Shown piece after piece: positions 4,423 through 25,883 of a stretch of DNA of 36,125 nucleotides. The DNA comes from Promethearchaeota archaeon. Lineage in GTDB: Archaea; Asgardarchaeota; Lokiarchaeia; Sigyniarchaeales; SOKP01. The translations under genes were made by a program, and so were the position numbers. The first letter of the stretch is position 1. Every line of letters starts with the position of its first letter. The notes beneath the pieces are model-generated. The model did no database searches and was not told the DNA's origin. It saw only the letters and a list, made by a program, of their open reading frames with translations. The stretch is taken from contig SDNY01000029.1 in assembly GCA_004524535.1 (NCBI GenBank), positions 1 through 36,125 on the forward strand, given 5' to 3'.

Positions 4423-7400
4423 ATGAATATTTACAGAAAAAAAGGTAAAACGGTTTTAGTTTTAATCAGTTTATTTACTATCTTGTATTTTCTAACATTT
4501 ATTTTCAATTCGGTTAATTTTATTCAGTATAACAATGAAAATGAGCAAAAATTTAAAGAGGATATATATGGAAATCCTCTTTCAGACGAAGAAGATAATA
4601 TTATATTAGATGATTTGAATTTTGAAGATAAATTACCACAACTTAGCAGCCCTATATTACAAAATTATACAATGATTGTAGGCAATCCTTATAGTTGGAT
4701 TAGTGCAGCTGGAGGCACTGAATTATTATTATTGGATAATAGCTATGTATCACGATCTTTACCATTTAGTTTTGATTTCTATAATGAGTCCTATTCAACA
4801 ATTTATTTAGGAGTAAATGGATATTTAAGTTTCACTGATTCATCACCTTCTGATTTTTCTAATGATCCGATTCCTTCAACGGATCCTGATAATACTTATC
4901 TAATCGCTCCATTTTGGGATGATTTGCTAACTGCTTGGGGTGGCGGAGGTGGAACGATTTATGTACGCTCATTTGGCACATATTGGGTTGCTGAATGGTT
5001 AAACATAGAACATATTTCTGGTCCTACTGTTGGTACATTTGAAGTTATTTTATATGATAATGGAGATATTGTTTTTAATTATGATTATATTAGTTATGTA
5101 GCTGGTGGGTATACTTGTGGATTAAATTTGGGTTTAGACACTAGTTATTACAATGAATATTCAGGTTTAACTGCATCAACAAATGATTTTTCATTACTTT
5201 TCACTCCTACAAATGATTATGCACCTCAATTATCAGCAGAGTCAGTTATACCTACAACAGGTGGTCAAACCACACAATTCAATTTTAGTGTAGAATATAC
5301 GGATCAAGACAACAATCCTCCCATTTATGTTAATGTAACTATAAATGGTACCTCTTATTCAATGAGTCAAGTAAATCCCTTAGATAATGATTATACTGAT
5401 GGTTGCATTTATCAATATATAACCTATCTACAACCAGCTGCATTTAATTATACTTATTCGTTTGAATGTAGCGATGGAGATAATTTTAATTCAACAATTA
5501 CTTACGACAATTTGGAAGTAATTCATGTAAATGATTATGGACCAGAACTTCTTAATCCACAAGTTACTCCATCAATAGGAGGGAATTCTAAATTATTCAA
5601 TTTTACAGTGAGATATTTTGATGATGATAACAATTTTCCTGTAAATATTAACATTACATTAAATAGCACGACAACATATTTGATGCTACCTGTAAATCCT
5701 CTAGATACCAATGCTATGGATGGTGTTCTTTATTATTTCAATACCACATTAGATTTTGGATATTATAGTTTTCAAATTAATTGTTCGGATGGAGTTTTCA
5801 CGAATTCAACAGGATGGATTATAGGCCCGGAAGTTAATCCTTTTTATGGACAGTGGAGCGATTTTACACTTTTCTATGATGATTTTGAACGAGCATCTCT
5901 AGGTTCAGATTGGACGCATATTGGTGGTGGATCATATGGAATTAATACCGATACTTTTCAATCACCGACTAGATCGGCTTATCATTGTTGGAATACTGGT
6001 GAAATCCAATCAAGAATATTTGACTTGAGTTTCTATCGTTATGTTAATATTTCCTATTGGGTTAGACAAGGAGATACGTCACTAGGGAGTGAACAACCCG
6101 AGACAGGTGAAGATTTCTTTGTTGAATACTATAATAATCTGGGGAGTTGGATTCCCCTTGATCAATTTTTAGGTGCTGATCCTGGTGCCACAATCTATAT
6201 ACGATCACACCAATTACCAGCTGATGCCCTACATTCCAATTTTCAAATAAGATTCAGACAGTTTGGGGGTTCTAATTCTGATTGGGATTGGTGGCATTTT
6301 GATGACGTGCGAATTGATGTTAATTCAGTACTGAATTTGCATTTACCCCTAAATAATAGTATTCACTTTAATGGTTTTATCAACTTCACATGGGACAGCT
6401 TAGATGCTTATATTGGTGCTTGTAATTATACTCTTCAAATCTCGAATCAAATAGACTTTTCAGTAATTAATATTGAAGAATTGAATATTCCAGAAACGCC
6501 TGATAATACCAGTATACTCATAGATGTAAATTTAGCGGCAGATCAATACTATTGGAGAATCCGTCCAACCTATGGTCCATTTTATCATAATTGGTCTGAT
6601 GTTTTTACATTTAACTTAACTATTAATAATTTCACTCCAAATTTATCATCTGTAGAAGTTATTCCATTATATGGTTCACAAATGACAAAATTTAACTTTA
6701 CAGTTATGTATTCTGACCAAGACAACAATCCTCCCATTTATGTTAATGTAAATATAAATGGTACATCTTATTCGATGAGTCAAGTAAATCCCTTAGATAC
6801 TGATTATACGGATGGTTGTATTTTCCAATATTTGTCTAAATTATCTCCAGCAACGTTCAATTATACTTATTCTTTTGAATGCTATGACGGGAAATATGCT
6901 AATTCTACTATCCTCTATGATAATTTAGAAGTAATAGAAATTAACCTAATTGCACCAAACCTTATTAATCCACAACTAAATCCTTCTATTGGAGTTAATT
7001 CTACTCTGTTTAATTTTTCTGTGTGGTACTATGATATAGAGAATAATCAACTCACCTATATCAATATCACAATAAATGATACTGGCACATTTTTAATGGA
7101 AAAAGCAGATCCATTGGATTTTAATGCGACAGATGGAATACTTTACTACTATACTACTACCTTACCTTGGGGTTATTATAAATTTCAAATTAATTGTTCG
7201 GATGGAGTTTTTACGAATTCAACAGGATGGTTGATTGGTCCTGAGGTTAATCCATTTTTAGGTTTGTCAGATTTGTCAACAGATCCTATTAAAATAGTGA
7301 TATTAGATTCAGCAGCGTCTGATGCTCCTCGTAATGGTATTTGGGCAAATTTGAATGCTAACTGGAATTTATATGGAACTTATAATATTTCAATAGATTA

Positions 7401-10400
7401 TACAACCTTAAACTTTAATGGGATAACTTATAATGACTTAGTTAATTCTGGAGCTGACGTAGTTGTTATTGCGGACGCTCATAGTAGTTATGACTACATG
7501 TTGCCAGAGATAAGGGCAATATATCAATATACTCAAGAAGGTCATGGGCTGGTTGGCTCGGGGGTGACTTTTTGGTCTTGTACTAACAATGATCGATTAG
7601 CTCCATTATTTGGAATGTATAGTAATATGACACCAAGTATTCCTCAAAATCCGAACAGTTTAGATATTGATCCCTTAGGGTATGGTTATAGTAGTACAAT
7701 ATTATTCAATAATCTGATTACACCTATGGAAGGATACACTGGTTATGCGCTAAATGGCTGGCAATTGAACTTTTCTGATCCAGCTGAATTTGCGGCGGCT
7801 TATGTTGGGGCGCCTACTGGAAATCTTAAAAGTGTTTTTTATGGCGCCGCAGTTTTAGTTCATGAAGGTGGTTCAGCTGGTTTGGGAAGATCTGTATTTG
7901 CAACACATTTAAGCACTTATAATTATGGTGGAACATGGACGTCTGAAGAAACACAGTTATATTATAATATTCTAATTTATGCTGCTATGAAGAATCTTAA
8001 AATTTCGAGTGCTATTAATTTAAAGTCCCCTGTTAACGAGAGTAGTTTTTTTAACGATGTATATAACTTTACTTGGTCAAGCTTAGATGCATATTTTGGA
8101 CCATGTAATTATACCCTCCAAATTTCGAATCAAATAGACTTTTCAGTAATAAATATTGAAGAATTGAATATTCCAGAAACGCCTGAAAATACGAGCATAC
8201 TTATAGATGTAAATTTAGCGGCAGATCAATACTATTGGAGAGTTCGTCCAACCTATGGTCCATTTTATTATAACTGGTCTGAAGTTTATACATTTAACTT
8301 AATCATTAACAATTACACTCCCAATCTCACATCTGTAGAAGTTATACCTCTTTCTGGTTCACAATTGACAATTTTTAACTTTACAGTTATTTATTCTGAT
8401 CAAGACAACAATCCTCCCATTTATGTTAATGTAATTATAAATGGTACCTCTTATTTGATGAGTCAAGTTAATCCCTTAGATACGGATTATACTGATGGTT
8501 GTATGTTTCAATATAAAACTAAATTATCTCCCGCAGTGTTCAATTATACCTATTCTTTCGAATGCTATGACGGGAAATATGCTAATTCTACTATCCTCTA
8601 TGATAATTTAGAAGTAATAGAAATTAACCTAATTGCACCCAACCTTATTAATCCACAACTAAATCCTTCTATTGGAGTTAATTCTACTCTTTTTAATTTT
8701 TCTGTGTGGTATTATGATATAGAGAATAATCAGCTCACCTATATCAATATCACAATAAATAATACTGGCATATTTTTAATGGAAAAAGCAGATCCTTTGG
8801 ATTTTAATGCAACAGATGGAATACTTTACTACCATACTACTACCTTACCTTGGGGTTATTATAAATTTCAAATTAATTGTTCGGATGGTGTTTTTACGAA
8901 TTCAACAGAATGGTTGATTGGCCCGGAAGTTAATCCTTTTTATGGTGATCCAATTTTACCCCTTTTAACACCATTAAATGAGAGCTTGTGGTTTACAAGT
9001 TTATTTGATTTCACATGGACAAGTTTAGAATTACCAAGTGGTGCCGTAGTAAACTATAGTTTGCAAATTTCGAATTCTACAGATTTTTCTTTTATTATTT
9101 TCGAAAAAGAAAATATAGAAGAGTTATCTGGGGTCTCAAATTTAACCCAATACATAGATTACCAATCCGGGTTATATTATTGGAGAGTTTGTGCCATATA
9201 TGAGGTTTTTACCAGTAACTGGTCAAATTATTATATGTTTAATTTAACCTACAATGAAAATATTCCGAATCTGTTTTCTGGTTCTGTTATACCTCGTACT
9301 GGAAGTCAATTGACTAAATTTAATTTTACTGTGGTATATATAGATCCTGATAATAATTACCCATATTCTATTACCGTTACTATTAATGGAACATCCTATG
9401 AGATGGTAAAAGTCAATTCTGCAGATAATAATTACACAGACGGGTGTGTATATCAATATCTCATATACTTGGCTCCCAGTGACTTTAATTATACCTATTA
9501 TTTCGAATGCTATGATGGTAAATATACCAATTTTACAATAAGTTATAATAATTTAGAGGTCAATGAATCTTTTCTGATTGCCCCACTGCTTATTAATCCA
9601 CATCTAAATCCATCTACTGGAGATACTTCTACACTGTTTAACTTTACAGTGTGGTACTATGATATAGAGAATAATCAGCTCACCTATATCAACATAACAA
9701 TAAAAAATACTGGCACATTTTTAATGGAAAAAATAAATCCTTTAGATTTCAATGCAACAGATGGAATACTTTACTACTATACTACTACATTACCTTGGGG
9801 TTCTTATAAATTTCAAATTAATTGTTCTGATGGTGTTTTAACAAATTCTACAGGATGGATTCATGGTCCCGAGATTAATCCTCCAGAGATTACGATTATA
9901 TCTCCAATACCTTACCAATTATTTGGAAATAAAACGTTTGAATTTGTATTATATATCTCTAATACAGAAAATTTATATTCAACATGGTATTCTTTAAATG
10001 GAGGTTTAAATTATACTTTTTCCGGTACAACTGGAACTATAAATCAATCAGCCTGGGATGCATGTGGAAATGGAACCGTTATTATAAGATTTTATACGAA
10101 TGATACTGTAGGTAATATAAATTTTACTGAGATTACTGTTCGAAAGGAAACAAGTTCTCCAAATATAACTATTAATCTTCCTTACGCCAATGATTTATTT
10201 GGAGCTGGGGCCCCAAAGTATAATGTTACTATAGATGATAATAAATTAAATACAACTTGGTACTCCTTAAATGGCGGATTAAATTATACATTCACCAGTT
10301 CAACGGGATTATTCAATCAGACTGCCTGGGATGCATGTGGAAATGGAACAGTCATTATAACTTTTTATGCGAATAATACCGCAGGAAATTTAAATTCTGA

Positions 10401-12771
10401 ACAATTAATTGTTCGTAAGGATATTATTGCTCCAATTATTACTATTAATTCTCCTTTTTCTAATGATTTGTTCGGATTTTCTGCATGTAGTTTTGATATT
10501 TCTATTATAGAGGCAAATCTAAACCTTACATGGTATACTTTAAATGGAGGCGCAAAATATAATTTCACAGGAACTAATGGTATAATTAATCAAACAGCTT
10601 GGGATGCGTTTGGAAATGAAACTATAATTATTAGATTCTATGCCAATGACACACTTGGAAATGAAGGATATGAGGAGAGATCTGTCCGTAAATATACACA
10701 TATTCCTGATATTACGATTGTTTCACCTACTGACTTACAGACATTAACGACATATATAATAAATTTTAATTTAAATATTGATGAGAAATACATTTTTGAA
10801 TCCAAATATTCATTAAACGGTGGCTCTAATTACACTTTTTCTGGTTCAAGCGGAACTATAAATGAGAATGCTTGGATAGTCTGTGATAATGGCAATGTTA
10901 ATATTACTTTTTATGTAGAAAATGATGTAGGTACGATTGGTTCAGAGAAGGTGACCGTTATTAAAAATACACCCTTATTGGAAAAAGATGCTTATGCTAT
11001 TATAATAGGCATTGAAAACTATCCAGGTACTTTTGATGATTTGTATTATTGTAGAGATGATGCACTTAGTATTAATTCAATGTTAATTAATCGATATCAT
11101 TTTAAATCTGCTAACATAATTTTACTTTTAGACTCTGCAGCTACTAAAAGTGCTATTACAAATGCATTTTCTCAAGTTTCTTCTAATATTGATTCTGAAG
11201 ATATCTTTTTCTTCTATTATGCGGGTCATGGAGGTTCTCAAACCGTTTTTAGACAATATATTTGCCCTTATGATTCTATTCCGGATACTCCAAGTAATCG
11301 TTATTATGATTATGAATTAAGTTCGCGCCTTAGTAGTTTTTCTGCAGCAGAAAAGTATGTTGTAATTGATTCTTGTTATAGTGGAGGGATGATATCGGAG
11401 TCACAATCTTCTCGACGATTTATAATGACTGCGTGTGATGATGATGAATCATCTTATGAATCTAGTTCTTTTGGACATGGTATTTTTACATATTATTTTT
11501 TAAGATCACCAACATATGCTTCAGACTCTAATGGAGATGGAGTTAAATCAATGGAAGAATGCTTTTCATATGCTGATGCTCGAACAGTAATATATACCTC
11601 GGGTGATCAAGATCCCCAAAAATATGACGCAATTAGTGGTCAAGCTGTATTTACACCTTCAATAACCTCATTAACCCTTTCAATTTCTGGAAATCAGTTA
11701 GATTATTCATTTTACATATATGGTACTAGATTAATAGAAACATTACGACTTAGTGTATGTGGTATTAATCCAATTACAGCAACTAAAACTATTAATTTTA
11801 AGGATAAAGCAACAACAAAAAGTGGATTTGGATATTATTCTGGTTCAATTATATTGGAAGGATGTACAAATATAACAGGATATGAATTCTCGGCAGAAAT
11901 TTCTGATAATTTACTTTCGTTTAATCAAAAATATGGTGATACTGATATTGATGACCTTTACGATATCGATGAAATTTTAGAATATGGAACTGATCCGAAT
12001 AACTGGGACACAGATGGTGATAGTTATAGTGATGGATGGGAAGTAGCAAATGGGTATGATCCTTTAGATCCTGATGATCCTCCCGAACCAGATGATGATG
12101 ATGATGATGACGGCGGTGGTGGGGCTGGTGCTGAGGAGGGATTTTTAATTATTATATTAATCCTTGTTGCAATAGGAGTCATTGGTTTTGTAGCAACAAT
12201 TGTAATAGTTAAGAGAAAGAGTAAAAGTACAATTAAAAGTACATATAAACCGACTATTAAGGGAAAGAGCACATATAAACCGAGTATCAAGGAAAAGACA
12301 CTACCCGAAAGTGCTTGGTTTAAGAAACCTACTGAAAAACCACCTATAGAGTCATATAGAAGACCCTATAAAATACCAGAGCCTAAATTGGATATTAATT
12401 ATTGTACGAATTGTGGTTCTAAAGTAAAGAAAGAAGATAGGTTTTGCACAAATTGTGGCACTTCAATAGAAAGCAAATTAGAGCCTAAGTCGCAATTTGA
12501 TAGGGGCGTGCCTTTAGGAGCGGACCGAGCTAAAATGAAATTAATATTGAAAGATTTTATCCTAAATAAAACACCGCCACCAAAATCCCAATTTTCTCTA
12601 GAGGGAAAAAGAGCAATAATGGTAGCTAAGATGGCAAATGATAAAATTATAGAAGGAAAATTGGCCGAAGCACTCAATTTAATGATGGAGTCTTTAAGGT
12701 TAGGCGTGCCTGAACCTTATAATACACGAATTAAAGCTACCCTATTAGATTTGTTAGAACGAGATTTTTAG
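4423..12771 (+). CDS. Giant membrane-anchored surface glycoprotein with NIDO-like, reelin-like and Ig/FN3-like repeats, a C14 caspase-family peptidase, TSP3-like Ca-binding motifs, a TM helix and a cytoplasmic zinc ribbon
   Basis: 2782-aa ORF with an N-terminal signal/TM segment and dense N-x-S/T sequons. C14 motifs AIIIGIENY, YYAGHGG, DSCYSGG, HGIFT and QDPQ. DTDxD motifs, a TM at about 12142-12210, and CTNCG-x9-CTNCG. Confidence 0.9.
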   Translation: MNIYRKKGKTVLVLISLFTILYFLTFIFNSVNFIQYNNENEQKFKEDIYGNPLSDEEDNIILDDLNFEDKLPQLSSPILQNYTMIVGNPYSWISAAGGTELLLLDNSYVSRSLPFSFDFYNESYSTIYLGVNGYLSFTDSSPSDFSNDPIPSTDPDNTYLIAPFWDDLLTAWGGGGGTIYVRSFGTYWVAEWLNIEHISGPTVGTFEVILYDNGDIVFNYDYISYVAGGYTCGLNLGLDTSYYNEYSGLTASTNDFSLLFTPTNDYAPQLSAESVIPTTGGQTTQFNFSVEYTDQDNNPPIYVNVTINGTSYSMSQVNPLDNDYTDGCIYQYITYLQPAAFNYTYSFECSDGDNFNSTITYDNLEVIHVNDYGPELLNPQVTPSIGGNSKLFNFTVRYFDDDNNFPVNINITLNSTTTYLMLPVNPLDTNAMDGVLYYFNTTLDFGYYSFQINCSDGVFTNSTGWIIGPEVNPFYGQWSDFTLFYDDFERASLGSDWTHIGGGSYGINTDTFQSPTRSAYHCWNTGEIQSRIFDLSFYRYVNISYWVRQGDTSLGSEQPETGEDFFVEYYNNLGSWIPLDQFLGADPGATIYIRSHQLPADALHSNFQIRFRQFGGSNSDWDWWHFDDVRIDVNSVLNLHLPLNNSIHFNGFINFTWDSLDAYIGACNYTLQISNQIDFSVINIEELNIPETPDNTSILIDVNLAADQYYWRIRPTYGPFYHNWSDVFTFNLTINNFTPNLSSVEVIPLYGSQMTKFNFTVMYSDQDNNPPIYVNVNINGTSYSMSQVNPLDTDYTDGCIFQYLSKLSPATFNYTYSFECYDGKYANSTILYDNLEVIEINLIAPNLINPQLNPSIGVNSTLFNFSVWYYDIENNQLTYINITINDTGTFLMEKADPLDFNATDGILYYYTTTLPWGYYKFQINCSDGVFTNSTGWLIGPEVNPFLGLSDLSTDPIKIVILDSAASDAPRNGIWANLNANWNLYGTYNISIDYTTLNFNGITYNDLVNSGADVVVIADAHSSYDYMLPEIRAIYQYTQEGHGLVGSGVTFWSCTNNDRLAPLFGMYSNMTPSIPQNPNSLDIDPLGYGYSSTILFNNLITPMEGYTGYALNGWQLNFSDPAEFAAAYVGAPTGNLKSVFYGAAVLVHEGGSAGLGRSVFATHLSTYNYGGTWTSEETQLYYNILIYAAMKNLKISSAINLKSPVNESSFFNDVYNFTWSSLDAYFGPCNYTLQISNQIDFSVINIEELNIPETPENTSILIDVNLAADQYYWRVRPTYGPFYYNWSEVYTFNLIINNYTPNLTSVEVIPLSGSQLTIFNFTVIYSDQDNNPPIYVNVIINGTSYLMSQVNPLDTDYTDGCMFQYKTKLSPAVFNYTYSFECYDGKYANSTILYDNLEVIEINLIAPNLINPQLNPSIGVNSTLFNFSVWYYDIENNQLTYINITINNTGIFLMEKADPLDFNATDGILYYHTTTLPWGYYKFQINCSDGVFTNSTEWLIGPEVNPFYGDPILPLLTPLNESLWFTSLFDFTWTSLELPSGAVVNYSLQISNSTDFSFIIFEKENIEELSGVSNLTQYIDYQSGLYYWRVCAIYEVFTSNWSNYYMFNLTYNENIPNLFSGSVIPRTGSQLTKFNFTVVYIDPDNNYPYSITVTINGTSYEMVKVNSADNNYTDGCVYQYLIYLAPSDFNYTYYFECYDGKYTNFTISYNNLEVNESFLIAPLLINPHLNPSTGDTSTLFNFTVWYYDIENNQLTYINITIKNTGTFLMEKINPLDFNATDGILYYYTTTLPWGSYKFQINCSDGVLTNSTGWIHGPEINPPEITIISPIPYQLFGNKTFEFVLYISNTENLYSTWYSLNGGLNYTFSGTTGTINQSAWDACGNGTVIIRFYTNDTVGNINFTEITVRKETSSPNITINLPYANDLFGAGAPKYNVTIDDNKLNTTWYSLNGGLNYTFTSSTGLFNQTAWDACGNGTVIITFYANNTAGNLNSEQLIVRKDIIAPIITINSPFSNDLFGFSACSFDISIIEANLNLTWYTLNGGAKYNFTGTNGIINQTAWDAFGNETIIIRFYANDTLGNEGYEERSVRKYTHIPDITIVSPTDLQTLTTYIINFNLNIDEKYIFESKYSLNGGSNYTFSGSSGTINENAWIVCDNGNVNITFYVENDVGTIGSEKVTVIKNTPLLEKDAYAIIIGIENYPGTFDDLYYCRDDALSINSMLINRYHFKSANIILLLDSAATKSAITNAFSQVSSNIDSEDIFFFYYAGHGGSQTVFRQYICPYDSIPDTPSNRYYDYELSSRLSSFSAAEKYVVIDSCYSGGMISESQSSRRFIMTACDDDESSYESSSFGHGIFTYYFLRSPTYASDSNGDGVKSMEECFSYADARTVIYTSGDQDPQKYDAISGQAVFTPSITSLTLSISGNQLDYSFYIYGTRLIETLRLSVCGINPITATKTINFKDKATTKSGFGYYSGSIILEGCTNITGYEFSAEISDNLLSFNQKYGDTDIDDLYDIDEILEYGTDPNNWDTDGDSYSDGWEVANGYDPLDPDDPPEPDDDDDDDGGGGAGAEEGFLIIILILVAIGVIGFVATIVIVKRKSKSTIKSTYKPTIKGKSTYKPSIKEKTLPESAWFKKPTEKPPIESYRRPYKIPEPKLDINYCTNCGSKVKKEDRFCTNCGTSIESKLEPKSQFDRGVPLGADRAKMKLILKDFILNKTPPPKSQFSLEGKRAIMVAKMANDKIIEGKLAEALNLMMESLRLGVPEPYNTRIKATLLDLLERDF
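6385..8940 (+). repeat. Recent intragenic duplication: about 870-bp near-identical copies at about 6385-7257 and about 8068-8940 (offset 1683 bp, 561 codons)
   Basis: TGTAATTATAC at 6421 and 8104, and GA(G/A)GTTAATCC at 7243 and 8926. Long stretches are identical at DNA level. Confidence 0.9.
9880..10968 (+). repeat. Four tandem Ig-like repeats of about 91 aa within the giant protein
   Basis: Unit P.ITI.SP...WYSLNGG.NYTF....G.INQ.AWDACGNGTVII.FY.N...G starts near 9880, 10156, 10429 and 10702. Confidence 0.85.
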
Positions 12772-15961: not shown

Positions 15962-17005
15962 TTAAATTATTTCAGCAAAAGCTTCAAATCTTGTGGCCAA
16001 TTGTTTATAAGATTCGCGATTATATTCCATCTCAATAAATAAATATGGAATTGGATTTTTAAGTTCCTTAAATTTTTTAGCCATAAAAGGATGGTCGTAT
16101 AATATTGGTTCACAAAACTTTTGAGCTATATTTACAACTCCATCAACGTTATATTTTGCGGCTAACTCTTTAACAAAATCAAACCTTTTTTGAGACGGTA
16201 CTTTTGTAGAATAAATTGGCTTGCTTAAGTGATATTTTGCCAGAGCTTTTATTGGTTTTTCAGTTTCATCAACATTAATCCAGAAATATCTCGTACCAAT
16301 GCATAGGTCATCTTGTACAATCTGATACCCAAGAGATTCTAAAAATTTAATAAATTCAGTATCGTCAATGACAGAGCCAGTTAAAAAGATTTTTTTAAGA
16401 TTTTTATCTGTAAATGGAGTTCTAGTTTTAATTTCCTCTAATTTGTCTTCGAGCATTTTCAAAGCTTCCTTTTTATCTTTTTGTTGCACATTTTTCACGA
16501 TATGGTGAAATTCTGAACCCTTTAATGTCATTTTACTTCGATACTCTGAAATTTCTTTAAGTAGATTCCTTATTTTATTCATCAATTTAATAGCTTCGAT
16601 TATTTTCTCATTTGTAATATTTACGTTGAAATGTTCTTCTAATTGAGTGATTAATTCTTTTATGTCTTTAACAAAAAATTTTAGGGAAGTTTTATCGCGC
16701 TTTAATGGAGCATTAAGGAAAAACATAAAATCAAGATCAACACACTCCAACCAAATATCAAATTCTCTGTTAGTACAATCACAGCCATGGGTTACTATAA
16801 CACCTTTAATATCGCTATCAAGCCCTTCAATTGCTTGCTCAAGGATATTTCTTGCCCAAACGCAATGAGTTGGAGGAATATGCTCATTTGCCTTGTCGAT
16901 CCCAATATTAGGATTGCCTAAAAGTCTAATGGGTACCAAATCAGCAGCAATTAAAATCTCTTCTGGAGTGATAATTCCCGCATCAAAATATGCAATTTTT
17001 TTCAA
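15962..17005 (-). CDS. 2-hydroxyacyl-CoA dehydratase beta subunit (HgdB/FldC/BcrC family)
   Basis: PEEILIAA, HC, HGCDC, DDLCIGTRYF, VDGVV...KFCEP and TRFEAFAE motifs. It lies directly upstream of the alpha subunit. Confidence 0.9.
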   Translation of the reverse strand: MKKIAYFDAGIITPEEILIAADLVPIRLLGNPNIGIDKANEHIPPTHCVWARNILEQAIEGLDSDIKGVIVTHGCDCTNREFDIWLECVDLDFMFFLNAPLKRDKTSLKFFVKDIKELITQLEEHFNVNITNEKIIEAIKLMNKIRNLLKEISEYRSKMTLKGSEFHHIVKNVQQKDKKEALKMLEDKLEEIKTRTPFTDKNLKKIFLTGSVIDDTEFIKFLESLGYQIVQDDLCIGTRYFWINVDETEKPIKALAKYHLSKPIYSTKVPSQKRFDFVKELAAKYNVDGVVNIAQKFCEPILYDHPFMAKKFKELKNPIPYLFIEMEYNRESYKQLATRFEAFAEII

Positions 17006-17130
17006 GATTTTATAGCTCTACAATTTAATATTTATTATTTGATATCTTTAATCAGAGAATATAAAAAAATATTTATATTTTCAATTATAACTAAATATAG
17101 TTAGATTTATTTTCAAGAGATTTATATTCT

Positions 17131-17445
17131 ATGAGTCAACCAACTATATCACGGACTTTAAGCAAAGCAATTCTTCAGCCCGAAGTTAGAATTAAATTAA
17201 AAATTTGGAACACATATCTTACTGGAAAGTTGGTAAAATTTGATAATTATATGAATTTAATTGTCGAAAATGCTAAAGAGATTTATTTTGGTCGAGGAGG
17301 AAAAAGATCTAAGGATTTAGGGACCGTGATGATCCGAGGGGCTTCAATTATTTTCATTGGTCAGGAAAGAGAAAAAATAATTTTTTCTGATACAGAGCTT
17401 AATCATGATAAATTAATGCACACGCATGAATCAGAGGAAGAATAA
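17131..17445 (+). CDS. Sm/Lsm-like RNA-binding protein (SmAP)
   Basis: Sm1 motif GKLVKFDNYMNLIVENAKE and Sm2 motif LGTVMIRGASI. Its position upstream of rpl37e is typical for archaea. Confidence 0.93.
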   Translation: MSQPTISRTLSKAILQPEVRIKLKIWNTYLTGKLVKFDNYMNLIVENAKEIYFGRGGKRSKDLGTVMIRGASIIFIGQEREKIIFSDTELNHDKLMHTHESEEE

Positions 17446-17740: not shown

Positions 17741-18121
17741 ATGAGTTCAGAAGACAGAACTGAAGAACTTCATGAATTATTGATGAATTTAGAAGTAATT
17801 AGCGGAATAATTGGTACTGCAATAGTAAAAAGTAATGGGTTATTAATTACTTCTAGATTACCAAGGGACATTGATGACCGAAAGTTTGGAGCAATGGCAG
17901 CTACTATGTTAGGTGCAGTTGAAACTGCTACAAGTGCTTTAGGGAATACAAATATTAATAATCTAACAGTTGAATTGGGAGACGATTACCAATTGATCGT
18001 GATGAAAGCCACTGATCAGATAATTCTTGTCTCATTATTAGATTTAAATGTTAATTTAGGTTTAATTTTAATAGAAATTGAAGAAACAATTAAAAAAATT
18101 AAAGAAATATTAATTTCATGA
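17741..18121 (+). CDS. Roadblock/LC7 (LAMTOR2-like) domain protein
   Basis: GIIGTAIVKSNGLLITS.LP...GAMAATM.G...LG...NLGLI pattern in 126 aa. Confidence 0.9.
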   Translation: MSSEDRTEELHELLMNLEVISGIIGTAIVKSNGLLITSRLPRDIDDRKFGAMAATMLGAVETATSALGNTNINNLTVELGDDYQLIVMKATDQIILVSLLDLNVNLGLILIEIEETIKKIKEILIS

Positions 18122-18131
18122 GGCGATTTAT

Positions 18132-18872
18132 ATTTTAACAGAAAACCAAAAAGAGAGATACTCTCGACAAATAATATCCCCTCTAATTGGTGAGGAGGGG
18201 CAAGAAAAATTATTAAATATTAGCGTATTACAAATTGGAATGGGGGGATTAGGATCTCCATGTTCTTTATATCTTACTGCAGCAGGAATAAAAGAATTGA
18301 CGATTATAGATAACGATGTTTTAGATCTTTCAAATTTACAAAGACAAATTTTATATAACGAGACACAGGTAGGTAGAGATAAAGCTGAAATAACAAAAGA
18401 GGTATTATCCAATCTCAATTCTGAAATTCAAATTAAGACTTATAAGGATTATATAGACGAAAATTCAATTAAAAAGTACTTAAAAGGTCAAGATTTTATA
18501 GTTGATTGCAGCGATAATTTACAAACTAAATTTCTCGTAAATAAAGTTGCGATTGAAAACAATATGAAATGTGTAATTGCTGGAATAAAAGATTTCTATG
18601 GTCAAATAATTACAATTAATCCTAAAAAGAGTGCTTGTTATCAATGTGTTTTTCCAGATCCCGAAAAAGATTCGATAGATCCAAATGCTGGTCCTTTACC
18701 AGTAATAGGTGTTACTCCAGGGATTTTAGGAACATTAGAAGCCTTAGAAGTTATTAAAACAACATTAGGACTTCCAAATTTATATGACAATCTATTAATG
18801 GTAAACTTATTAGATTTAAGTTTTAATAAAATACAAGTTGTTAAAGATGAGAAATGTATTTGCTCTAAATAA
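18132..18872 (+). CDS. ThiF/MoeB/HesA E1-like adenylyltransferase (probable ATT start at 18132; ORF-track start 18240 is internal)
   Basis: The in-frame extension ILTENQKERYSRQIISPLIGEEGQEKL precedes GMGGLG, DNDVLDLSNLQRQ, DCSDN and CYQC. In-frame TAA at 18111, no ATG/GTG/TTG between it and 18240, and a GAGGCG RBS-like motif at 18120-18125. Confidence 0.9.
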   Translation: MLTENQKERYSRQIISPLIGEEGQEKLLNISVLQIGMGGLGSPCSLYLTAAGIKELTIIDNDVLDLSNLQRQILYNETQVGRDKAEITKEVLSNLNSEIQIKTYKDYIDENSIKKYLKGQDFIVDCSDNLQTKFLVNKVAIENNMKCVIAGIKDFYGQIITINPKKSACYQCVFPDPEKDSIDPNAGPLPVIGVTPGILGTLEALEVIKTTLGLPNLYDNLLMVNLLDLSFNKIQVVKDEKCICSK

Positions 18873-18894: not shown

Positions 18895-19443
18895 TTAATA
18901 TTTTGTATATTCTGGATTTTTTTCAAAAAATTCCTTAAAAGCCTTTCCATTTTTAACATAACCTCCACTAGTTCTAGCTCCAATTAATTGAGGGCTATCA
19001 GGTAATTGTTTCTTAACATCTGCAGGAGTTCCTACTGCTAAACATTTTGGAGGAATCTCTTTATTCACAAGTGTGGCCCCAGCAGCTAATAGAGAGCCTT
19101 CACCTAATTTGGAATTATTCAATACATTAGATCCTATTCCAACTAAGCAACCATCCTCAATCACACATGGACCATGGATCATTGCATGGTGCCCTATTAT
19201 GCAATCTGCTCCAATAATTACAGATTTACCCACTTCTATATGAATAGTGACATTTTCTTGAACGCTTGTATTTCTTCCAATCTTAATTGTACCCCAATCT
19301 CCTCTCATTACAGCTCCAAACCACACATTAACTCCCTCCTCAATTATAACATCCCCAATGATTGTTGCACTTGGAGCTATATATGCATTCTCATGGATCT
19401 GAGGTTTCTTTCCTGTTTGTGGACTAGGCATTATTATCGGCAT
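18895..19443 (-). CDS. Gamma-carbonic-anhydrase-family (YrdA/PaaY-like) hexapeptide protein
   Basis: IAPSATIIGDV, RGD, QENVTIH and IGHHAMIHG with three His metal ligands. Confidence 0.92.
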   Translation of the reverse strand: MPIIMPSPQTGKKPQIHENAYIAPSATIIGDVIIEEGVNVWFGAVMRGDWGTIKIGRNTSVQENVTIHIEVGKSVIIGADCIIGHHAMIHGPCVIEDGCLVGIGSNVLNNSKLGEGSLLAAGATLVNKEIPPKCLAVGTPADVKKQLPDSPQLIGARTSGGYVKNGKAFKEFFEKNPEYTKY

Positions 19444-23798: not shown

Positions 23799-24917
23799 TT
23801 AACTTTCATTCTCTATAATAGTGAGAATATTTAAGTTCTCTTCAATCCTTGAGCCCTCTAAAATACTTTCTTGAAGCTTTCGACCTTCAATCGATTTAGG
23901 CAATTTTTTCGATTGAGAAATTATTTCCATTAATTTTTTCCTATCGGTTTCTAAGAAACCCATGTCAATAGCATTTTTTATTATAAGGTTCAAAATTAAT
24001 AGTTCAAATTGTTCTTGAATTGCATTCCATATTAATCCCATCTCTTTTAAGTGTTCGGCTATTTCTTCTGACATTTTATCTAAATCATAAATTTCAGAAT
24101 GGATCCCGGCATCAATATATATTATTTCCTCAATTAATCGATCTTTTATCAAACGCAAAGTTGTTGTTCCTAACAGATCTTCTTCATGGAAAAAAAAGTC
24201 GTCATTTTTACGTTTAATTAAATAAAAACCAAGCTCATTTGTCATTAGCTTAAGTCTCGCCAAATAATTTATAGCTTCTGGTGCTATTTTATAAATTTCA
24301 CAAAATTGATCTAATTTTAATTTATAACCTGAGAATTCTTCAGGTCTTTTTGTATCATTTAATTCATCAAGTCGCCAATATTTTTTTGCAAAAGCACCTT
24401 GTCCGAGAATTGAGTTATAAAAAACATAAAAAAGGGCAAGATAAAGATCTCTATCTTGTTGAATTTCAAAAAAATTATCGCCGATTTTGGAAATAATTCT
24501 TACTATATGAAAAATAAATGATTCTTCTACGCTTATTTCTTTATAGAATGCGATTAAATTTTCAAGCTTTTTAACATTATTTTTAAGTTCATTAATCATA
24601 AATAATTCTTTCTTCAATCTTAAAGGTTCTTCACCAAGCTTTTCAATGCCCCTTTCCGTAATAACATACCCTTGATATTGTTTATTGGATAATTTATCAG
24701 TAATTATTCTCTGTTCAACATAATTATTTTTTCTATGGAAATTTAAATATTTTGAGACTGTAGATCTACTTAAATTAGAATATTTTATTAAATTGGTAAA
24801 TCTTTGTGGACCAAGATTTCTTAGAATAAACAATATTCTTCTGCTATTATCTTCAATACCACTGGCTTTTGTTAATAACTCCCCTTTTAGCTTTTTAGAA
24901 ATATTCCAGCTTTCCAT
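23799..24917 (-). CDS. Winged-helix (ArsR/MarR-like) transcriptional regulator with an unknown C-terminal domain
   Basis: N-terminal ILFIL...RFTNL...LSRSTVSKYL...Y.ITERG winged-HTH pattern. Confidence 0.75.
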   Translation of the reverse strand: MESWNISKKLKGELLTKASGIEDNSRRILFILRNLGPQRFTNLIKYSNLSRSTVSKYLNFHRKNNYVEQRIITDKLSNKQYQGYVITERGIEKLGEEPLRLKKELFMINELKNNVKKLENLIAFYKEISVEESFIFHIVRIISKIGDNFFEIQQDRDLYLALFYVFYNSILGQGAFAKKYWRLDELNDTKRPEEFSGYKLKLDQFCEIYKIAPEAINYLARLKLMTNELGFYLIKRKNDDFFFHEEDLLGTTTLRLIKDRLIEEIIYIDAGIHSEIYDLDKMSEEIAEHLKEMGLIWNAIQEQFELLILNLIIKNAIDMGFLETDRKKLMEIISQSKKLPKSIEGRKLQESILEGSRIEENLNILTIIENES

Positions 24918-25306: not shown

Positions 25307-25465
25307 AATATCTAACACCATCTTGAAGATCTAATTGAATCCTATAAAAATATAGCTTTAAACTCAAGTATACCCTTTTAGACTAAAATCTTTAATTATT
25401 TTTATTATCTATATATATTTAATAATATATTTTATATCCGAATTTAAAAAAGGAAGTGATTAAAA

Positions 25466-25720
25466 ATTACACAATACAGATTTAGGCTTACTGGAGTCCC
25501 TCCAGACCAGGCTATAAAATTAATTGAGGTAGATCCTAATCAAAATATTGCTGATATTAAAAAATCCGTTCAGAGAGAATATAAGCTGAATCCGATTTTA
25601 GCGATTCAATTTATTTTTAAAGGGAAGGTTTTACCCGATCAATTAAAATTTGCAAAAATTGGTATCCACCCTAAGAAGGACGTAATCACGGTTATGGCTA
25701 CGCAGGCTGGCGGATTCTGA
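25466..25720 (+). CDS. Ubiquitin-like protein (84 aa, C-terminal GG-F), probable ATT start; absent from the ORF track
   Basis: Manual translation: ITQYRFRLTGVPPDQAIKLIEVDPNQNIADIKKSVQREYKLNPILAIQFIFKGKVLPDQLKFAKIGIHPKKDVITVMATQAGGF*. IFKGKVL.D matches ubiquitin IFAGKQL.D. RBS-like GGAAGTGA at 25452-25459 and a poly-T tract downstream. Confidence 0.88.
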   Translation: MTQYRFRLTGVPPDQAIKLIEVDPNQNIADIKKSVQREYKLNPILAIQFIFKGKVLPDQLKFAKIGIHPKKDVITVMATQAGGF

Positions 25721-25762: not shown

Positions 25763-25788
25763 ATTTTTTCTTTTTTTTTTATTTTTAT
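25763..25788 (+). terminator. Archaeal poly-T terminator-like tract after the ubiquitin-like gene
   Basis: TTTTTTTCTTTTTTTTTTATTTTT about 45 bp after the stop codon. Confidence 0.5.
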
Positions 25789-25883
25789 TAGATTTGCCGA
25801 TGAAATTATTTTGGGATAAGAAATTAAAAATTAAGGGAAGAGCATATATTTAAAATTGTGAATGGCGTTAGTTATTATAGAGT

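Follow-up and report, generated by a model that had tools for sequence, protein, structure and literature searches.

A conserved stand-alone ubiquitin-family gene with a putative ATT start codon in a lokiarchaeial genome, and apparent use of ATT, ATA and CTG starts across that genome

The locus and its reading frame

We analysed a stretch of 36 125 nucleotides (positions 1 to 36 125 of contig SDNY01000029.1, assembly GCA_004524535.1, hereafter the window) from a promethearchaeon of the order Sigyniarchaeales (Lokiarchaeia; genome G000, 30.4% G+C), concentrating on a short gene for a ubiquitin-like protein (Ubl) that an earlier note, made from the DNA letters, had described as hidden from gene callers by an ATT start codon. 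The locus contains the following features:

25466-25720, plus strand: coding sequence of the Ubl precursor, 84 residues, including the stop TGA at 25718-25720 (from PF00240, AlphaFold2, Foldseek and substitution rates)
25466-25468, plus strand: putative ATT start codon, homologous to ATG in 19, ATT in 8, TTG in 2 and ATA in 1 of 30 loci
25451-25460, plus strand: putative Shine-Dalgarno sequence AGGAAGTGAT, containing the in-frame TGA at 25457-25459 (from the sequence and the 16S 3' ends of relatives)
25709-25717, plus strand: codons for the invariant G82-G83 and the one-residue tail F84 (GG in 25 of 25 aligned sequences)
25764-25789, plus strand: T-rich tract 44 nucleotides past the Ubl stop, a possible archaeal oligo-T terminator judged from its sequence

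The frame itself (25466-25717) consists of 84 sense codons and reads ITQYRFRLTGVPPDQ...VITVMATQAGGF (ITQYRF...ATQAGGF). It is closed upstream by the in-frame TGA, and a script check found codon 77 to be its sole in-frame ATG, GTG or TTG. The motif GGAAGTGA lies at 25452-25459, separated by six bases from the ATT. The frame is missing from an open reading frame listing made with the usual start codons, as the earlier note had reported, and every other detail that the note gave of this locus (the upstream TGA, the ATT, the 84 codons, the only in-frame ATG at residue 77, the Shine-Dalgarno-like motif six nucleotides before the ATT and the GG-F end) agrees with the sequence; no part of its overall reading was contradicted. 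Open frames of 86 codons arise by chance at about 8e-4 per frame at 30% G+C, which amounts to hundreds genome-wide (an estimate from base composition), and the length of the Ubl frame alone would not place it beyond chance. Its significance comes from homology, namely the match to PF00240 (E = 3.9e-9) and the orthologues found in 35 of 40 relatives.

Ubiquitin-family identity and predicted fold

Ubl scored 36.6 bits against the Pfam profile PF00240 (gathering cut-off 25.4), with residues 17-80 aligned to positions 11-71 of the 72 in the profile. This was the best PF00240 match in the genome, the two others reaching 32.7 and 24.2 bits. PF02597 (ThiS/MoaD) was not among the Pfam matches of Ubl even at E up to 10, and five places elsewhere in the genome match that family. 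The SUMO-like profile PF11976 (Rad60-SLD) gave 19.0 bits, under its cut-off of 23.8. In a phmmer search of PDB sequences, Ubl matched polyubiquitin, the ubiquitin-like domains of Mdy2/Get5 and ubiquitin; in the alignment to ubiquitin chains I50, G53 and K54 correspond to I44, G47 and K48, the same pairing that had been made by eye for I50 and K54 in the earlier note.

An AlphaFold2 model built with 25 aligned homologues had a mean predicted local distance difference test score (pLDDT) of 91.0 and a predicted template modelling (TM) score of 0.79. Its strands (E) and helices (H) follow the beta-grasp order (E2-8, H13-16, E17-22, H28-38, E45-51, H62-65 and E73-80); the first loop, which follows strand 1, is longer than its counterpart in ubiquitin and holds one additional short helix. 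Foldseek returned 460 PDB matches at E <= 0.001 with this model, headed by SUMO2/3, ubiquitin, Caldiarchaeum subterraneum ubiquitin and NEDD8 (TM 0.62-0.84; 14-25% identity among the matches listed), and the probability was 1.00 against ubiquitin, SUMO and NEDD8 chains. The profile and the model together support placing Ubl in the ubiquitin family with a predicted beta-grasp, and not with ThiS/MoaD; the suggestion that it is closer to ubiquitin than to SAMP/MoaD is thereby borne out by both kinds of check that had been proposed for it. As aligned, L8, I50 and M77 of Ubl appear to form a hydrophobic patch like that of ubiquitin, and the position equivalent to K48 is occupied by a lysine (K54).

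Conservation and selection

Forty related genomes, one per species, were searched in six frames. Orthologues were found in 35 of them, at 73-99% identity and in all four families of the order that were covered; among relatives at least 90% complete, 16 of 17 had the gene. Within the window's genus Ubl was present in seven of nine genomes, the two without a match being 71-72% complete. The ratio of non-synonymous to synonymous substitution rates (dN/dS), computed over 78 core codons of 28 orthologous loci against the window (locus L046, which carries an insertion, was excluded), was 0, 0.01 and 0.01 for three species of the genus (G008, G002 and G005; dS 0.41-1.15), and 0.03 and 0.08 for two more distant species. 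In the other 23 of the 28 comparisons synonymous sites were saturated, while protein identity was still 76-96% over the core codons. The alignment of 25 Ubl sequences contains 27 invariant columns (including L8, T9, G10, I50, G53, M77, G82 and G83), and K54 is kept in at least 90% of the sequences. These patterns indicate a real gene under strong purifying selection; homologues evolving in this way were what the earlier note had asked for as a test of its reading.

The locus left out of the rate comparison (L046:1703-1732, contig C61 of G026, another family) is a Ubl orthologue with a 30-nucleotide insertion holding an in-frame TAA. Deleting the 30 nucleotides gives back the exact IHPKKDV reading of the sister genome. 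RNAfold predicts an exon-exon helix, a 3-base-pair helix with staggered flanking bulges and an inner 9-base-pair hairpin, a shape like a relaxed bulge-helix-bulge, and the insertion could be either an mRNA mini-intron or a small palindromic insertion. Three database Ubl entries available as protein only (P0011, P0012 and P0048) follow the family sequence and then run into unrelated residues and a stop, with differing break points (after ...VMATQ and after ...KKDVI); they look like cases of a gene caller reading into further insertions.

The start codon of the Ubl gene

The start codon was tallied over 30 loci, including the window, by reading the codon at, or no more than two codons from, the homologous position. 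It was ATG in 19 loci, ATT in 8, TTG in 2 and ATA in 1. Six of the seven loci of the window's genus have ATT and one has ATA, and non-ATG starts occur in 11 of 17 loci of the window's family as against 0 of 13 in the three remaining families. Of the nine ATT/ATA loci, six are without any canonical in-frame start between the upstream stop and codon 77.

The 16S ribosomal RNA (rRNA) of two relatives from another family (G037 and G031) ends ...GGATCACCTCC, and AGGAAGTGAT fits 9 of 10 bases of the complement of this 3' end. The motif is retained in the ATT/ATA orthologues, and in the ATG-starting orthologues its GGTGA part sits 6-7 nucleotides before the ATG, which argues that it acts as a Shine-Dalgarno sequence and is not itself the start. 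The predicted duplex with 16S rRNA averaged -8.0 kcal/mol in ATT/ATA loci (n = 9) and -5.3 kcal/mol in ATG loci (n = 19; one-sided Mann-Whitney p = 0.0096), a difference that is to be read as a trend, the loci being kin. The GTG within the motif is in frame in G004, G007 and G021 (EVIKITQ...), and database entry P0005 (MIKITQ...) has been called from it; it is out of frame in the window, G008, G002, G005 and G001, and G022 is likewise without a canonical in-frame start.

In run X1, a possible source, the ATT stands without variant at depth 51. A contig from an independent study (X2 record 12) spans 25451-25635 with one difference, at 25567, and is identical at the TGA, the motif and the ATT. 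These data, with the ATT in eight species, rule out a sequencing error at this codon; an ATG in reads at 25466, which had been named as what would overturn the proposed start, was not found. Read-through of the TGA was rejected too, as nothing upstream of it is kept in frame and the orthologues begin at the position of the ATT. Contigs of two RNA libraries from two studies span 25451-25669 and 25559-25711 (the X20 contig has four differing letters, one of them not itemised), and may be a weak hint that Ubl is expressed.

Taken together, the position homologous to ATG in 19 of the 30 loci and the retention of ATT across species of the genus support ATT 25466 as the likely start codon of Ubl, as the earlier note had proposed. 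Its suggested comparison of starts and annotation among orthologues gave a consistent picture as well, ATT/ATA loci lying in the family and ATG orthologues being already annotated.

ATT, ATA and CTG starts across the genome

The whole genome (3.66 Mb) was scanned for frames led by a Shine-Dalgarno core, and the results apply to such genes. A frame was counted when it was open for at least 100 codons, had an in-frame stop no more than 6 codons upstream, and had no canonical start between that stop and the candidate or in the next 15 codons. AAA, AAT and TTT, picked as AT-only triplets, served as controls. The counts were as follows, the spacer being the distance from the Shine-Dalgarno core:

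ATG: 139 in total, 35 at spacer 5 (the ATG peak)
TTG: 38 in total, 8 at spacer 5
GTG: 10 in total, 5 at spacer 5
ATT: 20 in total, 7 at spacer 5 and 4 at spacer 6
ATA: 18 in total, 12 at spacer 5
AAA (control): 15 in total, 0 at spacer 5
AAT (control): 11 in total, 0 at spacer 5
TTT (control): 11 in total, 2 at spacer 5

At spacers 3-8 there were 32 non-canonical cases (16 ATT, 12 ATA, 3 CTG and 1 ATC) against 158 canonical ones, so that non-canonical codons make up 32/190 of the strong Shine-Dalgarno-led starts of the genome, with the same spacer distribution as ATG. Examples are C174:33123-34241(+), C153:11405-12130(-), C147:6067-6723(-), C22:1241-2191(-), C183:5134-6099(+), C180:260-814(-) and C44:6020-7675(-). 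When ten of the 32 were scanned with Pfam, nine matched a family, and in seven the proposed start and the beginning of the profile lie so close together that initiation at the next canonical codon would remove part of the domain:

HisA-type protein, ATA start: profile position 1 at residue 2, next canonical start at residue 17
Ras/Arf-type GTPase, ATA start: profile position 1 at residue 2, next canonical start at residue 25
Gtr1/RagA-type GTPase, ATT start: profile position 1 at residue 7, next canonical start at residue 23
Metallo-beta-lactamase fold protein, CTG start: profile position 1 at residue 2, next canonical start at residue 57
FtsZ, ATA start: profile position 1 at residue 25, next canonical start at residue 43
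TFB, ATT start: zinc ribbon at residues 23-62, next canonical start at residue 39
Oxoacid:ferredoxin oxidoreductase, ATA start: profile position 1 at residue 14, next canonical start at residue 39

The homologous codon in relatives was ATG for HisA (in G001) and for the C100 gene (in G037), GTG for the C78 gene and ATT again for the C61 gene (both in G001); six other rows of this comparison were paralogues or had a start too deep into the query. The same scan of G001, of the same genus, gave 7 ATT/ATA/ATC/CTG and 26 canonical starts in 793 kb. Two relatives from other families gave 2 and 34 in 800 kb (G037), and 2, both doubtful, and 15 in 400 kb (G031). These numbers, which are small, point to a habit strongest in the window's family, in the same direction as the Ubl tally. 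ATT, ATA and CTG are thus, on comparative evidence, apparently in use genome-wide as starts behind Shine-Dalgarno sequences, Ubl being one case. The ATT start claimed in the earlier note holds up as real, but it is not special to Ubl. The Ubl gene is hidden because the genome uses start codons that callers mishandle. We found no paper on ATT or ATA starts in Asgard archaea in the literature searched. As to the initiation machinery, aIF1 is present in the genome, and aragorn found 9 transfer RNAs (tRNAs), or 20 with introns allowed, too incomplete a set in which to look for an unusual initiator.

A second gene with a probable ATT start lies in the window itself:

18132-18872, plus strand: MoeB/UbaA-type E1-like adenylyltransferase with an ATT start; ThiF profile from 18159

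No ATG, GTG or TTG occurs between the stop at 18111-18113 and the ATG at 18240, which encodes the M within the G-M-G-G-L-G loop; a start there would cut the nucleotide-binding loop. The motif GAGGCGAT ends 4 nucleotides before the ATT at 18132 and overlaps the stop codon of a Roadblock/LC7 gene upstream. In the G001 orthologue, the codon at precisely the position of this ATT is ATG. The MoeB-like gene would thus support ATT as a start codon in the window; a link between it and Ubl is a candidate at most.

On the minus strand of contig C65 of the same genome, three similar 70-codon frames about 2 kb apart each have ATC five bases after TGAGGTGAT; they may be a repeated element or antisense to something.

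The terminal GG, the tail and candidate enzymes

G82-G83 was invariant in all 25 aligned sequences. What follows it varied among the 30 loci: nothing in 6, and 1-3 variable residues in 24 (I in 7, N in 4, C in 4, F in 3, Y in 3, and K, EQ and FLI in 1 each). Ubl thus has the C-terminus expected of a modifier, a conserved GG that would be exposed either directly or after trimming, and the GGF end of the window copy is as the earlier note had read it. We consider that Ubl would be a precursor that is trimmed and then conjugated. The last lysine or arginine before the GG is K71, which is why a tryptic diglycine remnant cannot arise from Ubl; the remnant would be 12 residues long (D72-G83).

A profile search of 1.84 billion representatives recovered 376 relatives of Ubl at E <= 0.001, and 12 of these reached <= 1e-30. 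Among metagenomic relatives, P0127, P0084 and P0132 are fusions in which Ubl-GG is followed by 60-110 further residues, some cysteine-rich, and P0121 is a tandem di-Ubl; all four follow the same logic as eukaryotic ubiquitin and ubiquitin-fusion precursors. A Ubl-like internal domain, which shares 29-44% identity with residues 3-60 of Ubl, was observed in six large repeated proteins of the genome (C32:1-2109, C43:3-1871, C48:10757-12628, C70:1437-4751, C155:1-4485 and C153:1-4626), five of them at contig ends; the C32, C43 and C48 frames run to ...ITIMAQQRG, ...ITVMAQQR or ...ITVMVQQK, without a terminal GG.

The genome has five ThiF-family matches (four above the Pfam cut-off, two of about 400 amino acids) and five JAB matches (four above the Pfam cut-off), and E2 domains occur in it at three sites, on C24, C123 and C181. 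The four JAB proteins regarded as candidate proteases are encoded on C123, C181, C160 and C161; a Peptidase_C48 (Ulp/SENP-type protease) match was not found in it. The operon-type ubiquitin cluster lies elsewhere, at C123:14153-19440, and comprises a Ubl, an E1 of 407 amino acids, an E2 whose coding sequence is divided between two frames (17038-17295 and 16739-17023) and a JAB protease; the window's Ubl is therefore outside the usual operon, as had been claimed. The C123 Ubl (frame 19072-19440) ends ...PASTAGI and scored 24.2 bits on PF00240, under the cut-off. A second cluster, on C181, combines an E2-like protein, a ThiF protein and a JAB protease, and a lone E1 of 399 amino acids and a lone E2 are encoded on C11 and C24 respectively. 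That these two unlinked enzymes serve the window's Ubl is speculation.

Proposed function and alternatives

We propose, with a probability of about 0.7, that the window's Ubl is a functional gene for the precursor of a small ubiquitin-family modifier, translated from ATT and subsequently trimmed and conjugated. In the sequence of events that we envisage, AGGAAGTGAT in the mRNA would pair with the 3' end of 16S rRNA and bring ATT 25466 into the P site, where initiator Met-tRNA would read it as a near-cognate start, as presumably at many genes in the genus. The predicted product is an 84-residue beta-grasp protein. The residue after G83 would then be cut, most likely by one of the genome's four JAB/MPN proteases, leaving a C-terminal Gly-Gly; an E1-like enzyme would activate the mature Ubl, which E1 and E2 enzymes encoded elsewhere would then join to its targets.

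Several points weigh against this proposal. Ubiquitin is nearly invariant among eukaryotes, and the identity of Ubl to it is just 20-23% (Foldseek), with a tail before the GG (ATQAGG) that is uncharged and lacks ubiquitin's arginines, so that Ubl is not ubiquitin proper and no enzyme is assignable to it by analogy. None of the genes conserved next to Ubl in the loci examined encodes an E1, an E2 or a protease. The window genome's own 16S 3' end is unassembled, the anti-Shine-Dalgarno sequence being taken from the other-family relatives. An AT-rich TATA-like run lies very near, and the transcript might start inside or past the Shine-Dalgarno motif, while the RNA-library contigs may be DNA carry-over, their ends being assembly breaks. 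Translation, the N-terminus, processing, the E1 thioester and the conjugates are, for their part, inferred.

Ubl might fold like ubiquitin yet never be conjugated, acting as a free binding module like the domains of Get5/Mdy2, Rad23 and ubiquilin. Its best single-domain PDB sequence matches are indeed Mdy2/Get5 (E = 2e-4), then Rad23 and ubiquilin; its only NCBIfam match, a weak one, is to Rad23; no enzyme gene is linked to it; and the related domains inside large proteins of the genome end ...QQRG or ...QQK, not GG. Binding-only ubiquitin-like domains, however, normally reside within larger proteins and have no conserved terminal GG, whereas in Ubl the GG is invariant (25/25) and followed by 0-3 hypervariable residues, against a body with dN/dS of about 0.01, and natural fusions run on straight after the GG. 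We therefore regard a binding role as unlikely, and give no better odds to a SAMP/Urm1-like one, in which a MoeB/UbaA-type E1 would act without an E2 in sulfur transfer and/or E2-independent modification. Haloferax SAMPs end in GG and need UbaA alone, and the MoeB/UbaA-type adenylyltransferase of the window, which scored 190.8 bits on the SAMP-activating E1 model (below its cut-off of 450), is encoded 6.6 kb upstream of Ubl in a neighbourhood retained in G001, although synteny within one genus is weak evidence. Ubl matches PF00240 and not ThiS/MoaD, five separate ThiS/MoaD-family matches would serve MoeB, the positions of the ubiquitin hydrophobic patch and the K48 equivalent are invariant or nearly so, and E1 and E2 genes of eukaryotic type are present in the genome.

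For ATT not to be the start, translation would have to begin at the GTG in GGAAGTGA and shift frame in the A-run, or the gene would have to be a recent pseudogene, or the ATT a sequencing error. The in-frame GTG of G004, G007 and G021, from which P0005 was called, gives the first of these some footing, but the out-of-frame GTG in the window, G008, G002, G005 and G001, the dN/dS of 0-0.01 in G008, G002 and G005, and the GGTGA 6-7 nucleotides before the ATG of other orthologues, as expected of a Shine-Dalgarno sequence, all count against these readings. ATT and ATA recur, moreover, behind Shine-Dalgarno sequences at genes with family profiles from residue 1-2, and a sequencing error is at odds with the depth of 51 without variant and the independent contig identical at the ATT. 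We consider a start other than ATT very improbable.

Comparison with known relatives and systems

The Ubl family as such is already known: 194 database proteins match it, and 116 of the 120 listed have a precomputed PF00240 match. Those that have a name come from Lokiarchaeota or Promethearchaeota and are called 'hypothetical protein', 'ubiquitin-like protein' or 'ubiquitin-like domain-containing protein'. Candidatus Lokiarchaeum ossiferum NEF87_002374 (P0075), for instance, belongs to the same orthologous family, with 77% identity. The public orthologue entries resemble Ubl in length (83-84 amino acids), sequence (71-96% identical), RFRLTGVPPD start and ...VMATQAGG end with a short tail; most of them start with ATG and were called for that reason, whereas the window copy starts with ATT. 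Entries from non-ATG lineages (P0001, P0003, P0004, P0043 and P0076) have been called from an arbitrary upstream GTG or TTG or are truncated, which fits the mishandling of the non-ATG Ubl start by callers. No cluster representative among the matches listed was more than 96% identical to the window's Ubl, although 90% clusters could hide closer members. The window's Ubl thus adds a member to a filed family, and of the hidden gene of the earlier note what stands is that non-ATG lineages escape the callers. The literature searched yielded no experiments on the family. The passages available from a catalogue of Asgard ubiquitin homologues (PMC9192718) name no such protein, and its supplement may list the family.

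With eukaryotic ubiquitin, NEDD8 and SUMO (PF00240 and PF11976) Ubl shares the predicted beta-grasp, the I44, G47 and K48 equivalents, the terminal GG, and the precursor tail or fusions; it differs from them in its low identity, the longer, helix-bearing first loop, the uncharged end and a SUMO model score below cut-off. The ubiquitin of Caldiarchaeum subterraneum is reportedly a pro-form cut by a JAB/Rpn11 homologue. It is an archaeal protein of the ubiquitin fold and of similar size (PDB 6FNN; TM 0.75 to the Ubl model). Its gene lies in an E1/E2/RING/Rpn11 operon (PMC5654768), whereas the window's Ubl stands alone in all loci examined. The operon-linked Ubl on C123 of the window genome differs from the window's Ubl in its weaker PF00240 match and its AG-I ending. 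For the start codon, the AUU of E. coli infC is the familiar precedent, a near-cognate codon off AUG at the third position and read by initiator tRNA behind a Shine-Dalgarno sequence. That gene, however, is one regulatory exception, whereas non-canonical codons here account for 32/190 of the starts counted in G000 and 7/33 in G001, as against 2/36 in G037.

Implications

Ubl is a strongly conserved, stand-alone and probably conjugatable ubiquitin-type protein of Lokiarchaeia. A wider reading, to which we would give even odds, joins two propositions: that a lokiarchaeial lineage (the genus, perhaps the family) has a relaxed choice of start codon, and that the stand-alone Ubl is the main ubiquitin-type modifier of Lokiarchaeia. 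Under the first, AUU, AUA and sometimes CUG or AUC would be ordinary starts behind a strong Shine-Dalgarno sequence, in about one in six such genes by the criteria of our scan, and the set would span FtsZ, TFB, HisA, small GTPases, MoeB and Ubl. Under the second, the operon-encoded Ubl would not be the main modifier, and some lineages would make a tailed or fused precursor, as eukaryotes do.

Gene callers of the Prodigal type consider only ATG, GTG and TTG. If the relaxed starts are real, callers omit short genes such as Ubl and shorten longer ones past functional motifs (the nucleotide-binding loops of FtsZ and the small GTPases, the zinc ribbon of TFB and the Rossmann loop of MoeB), and proteins, including eukaryotic signature proteins, would be systematically missing from or truncated in Asgard inventories built on these three codons. 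This would bear on the counts of such proteins in Asgard genomes and on the evolution of start-codon fidelity (aIF1/eIF1). We see the genome-wide ATT/ATA/CTG starts as a more surprising result than Ubl itself, and one with practical consequences for Asgard annotation. The conservation of Ubl throughout an order is reminiscent of eukaryotic ubiquitin, yet its gene is separate from the known Asgard ubiquitin operon, and this makes the protein a good candidate for the biochemistry of ubiquitin-type tagging before eukaryotes.

Neighbouring genes and other observations

The Ubl gene is flanked in the window by genes for a winged-helix protein, a leucine-rich repeat (LRR) protein, NadA and a hydrolase, and is not adjacent to modifier enzymes. 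The divergent neighbour is:

23799-24917, minus strand: winged-helix protein of 372 amino acids, with HTH_45 and HTH_5 at residues 26-93

This gene lies beside Ubl in 14 of 29 loci (tblastn; these loci had 1.5-kb flanks only), including that of G001, where it forms part of a synteny conserved at genus level. Its look-alikes in the atlas were generic MarR-, ArsR- or WhiP-type regulators, all at or below 0.90, and it looks like an ordinary transcription regulator. Ten flanking genes in five other-family relatives included no E1, E2 or JAB, and each family has its own set of neighbours (among them RIO kinase, MutL, a methylase and AsnC). We considered a functional link between Ubl and its neighbours and rejected it, the winged-helix protein being a generic regulator and LRR, NadA and the others unrelated.

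Further upstream in the window, 4423-12771 on the plus strand encodes a protein of 2782 residues; residues 2191-2367 match a caspase-type (Peptidase_C14) domain, and a zinc ribbon lies at the C-terminus.

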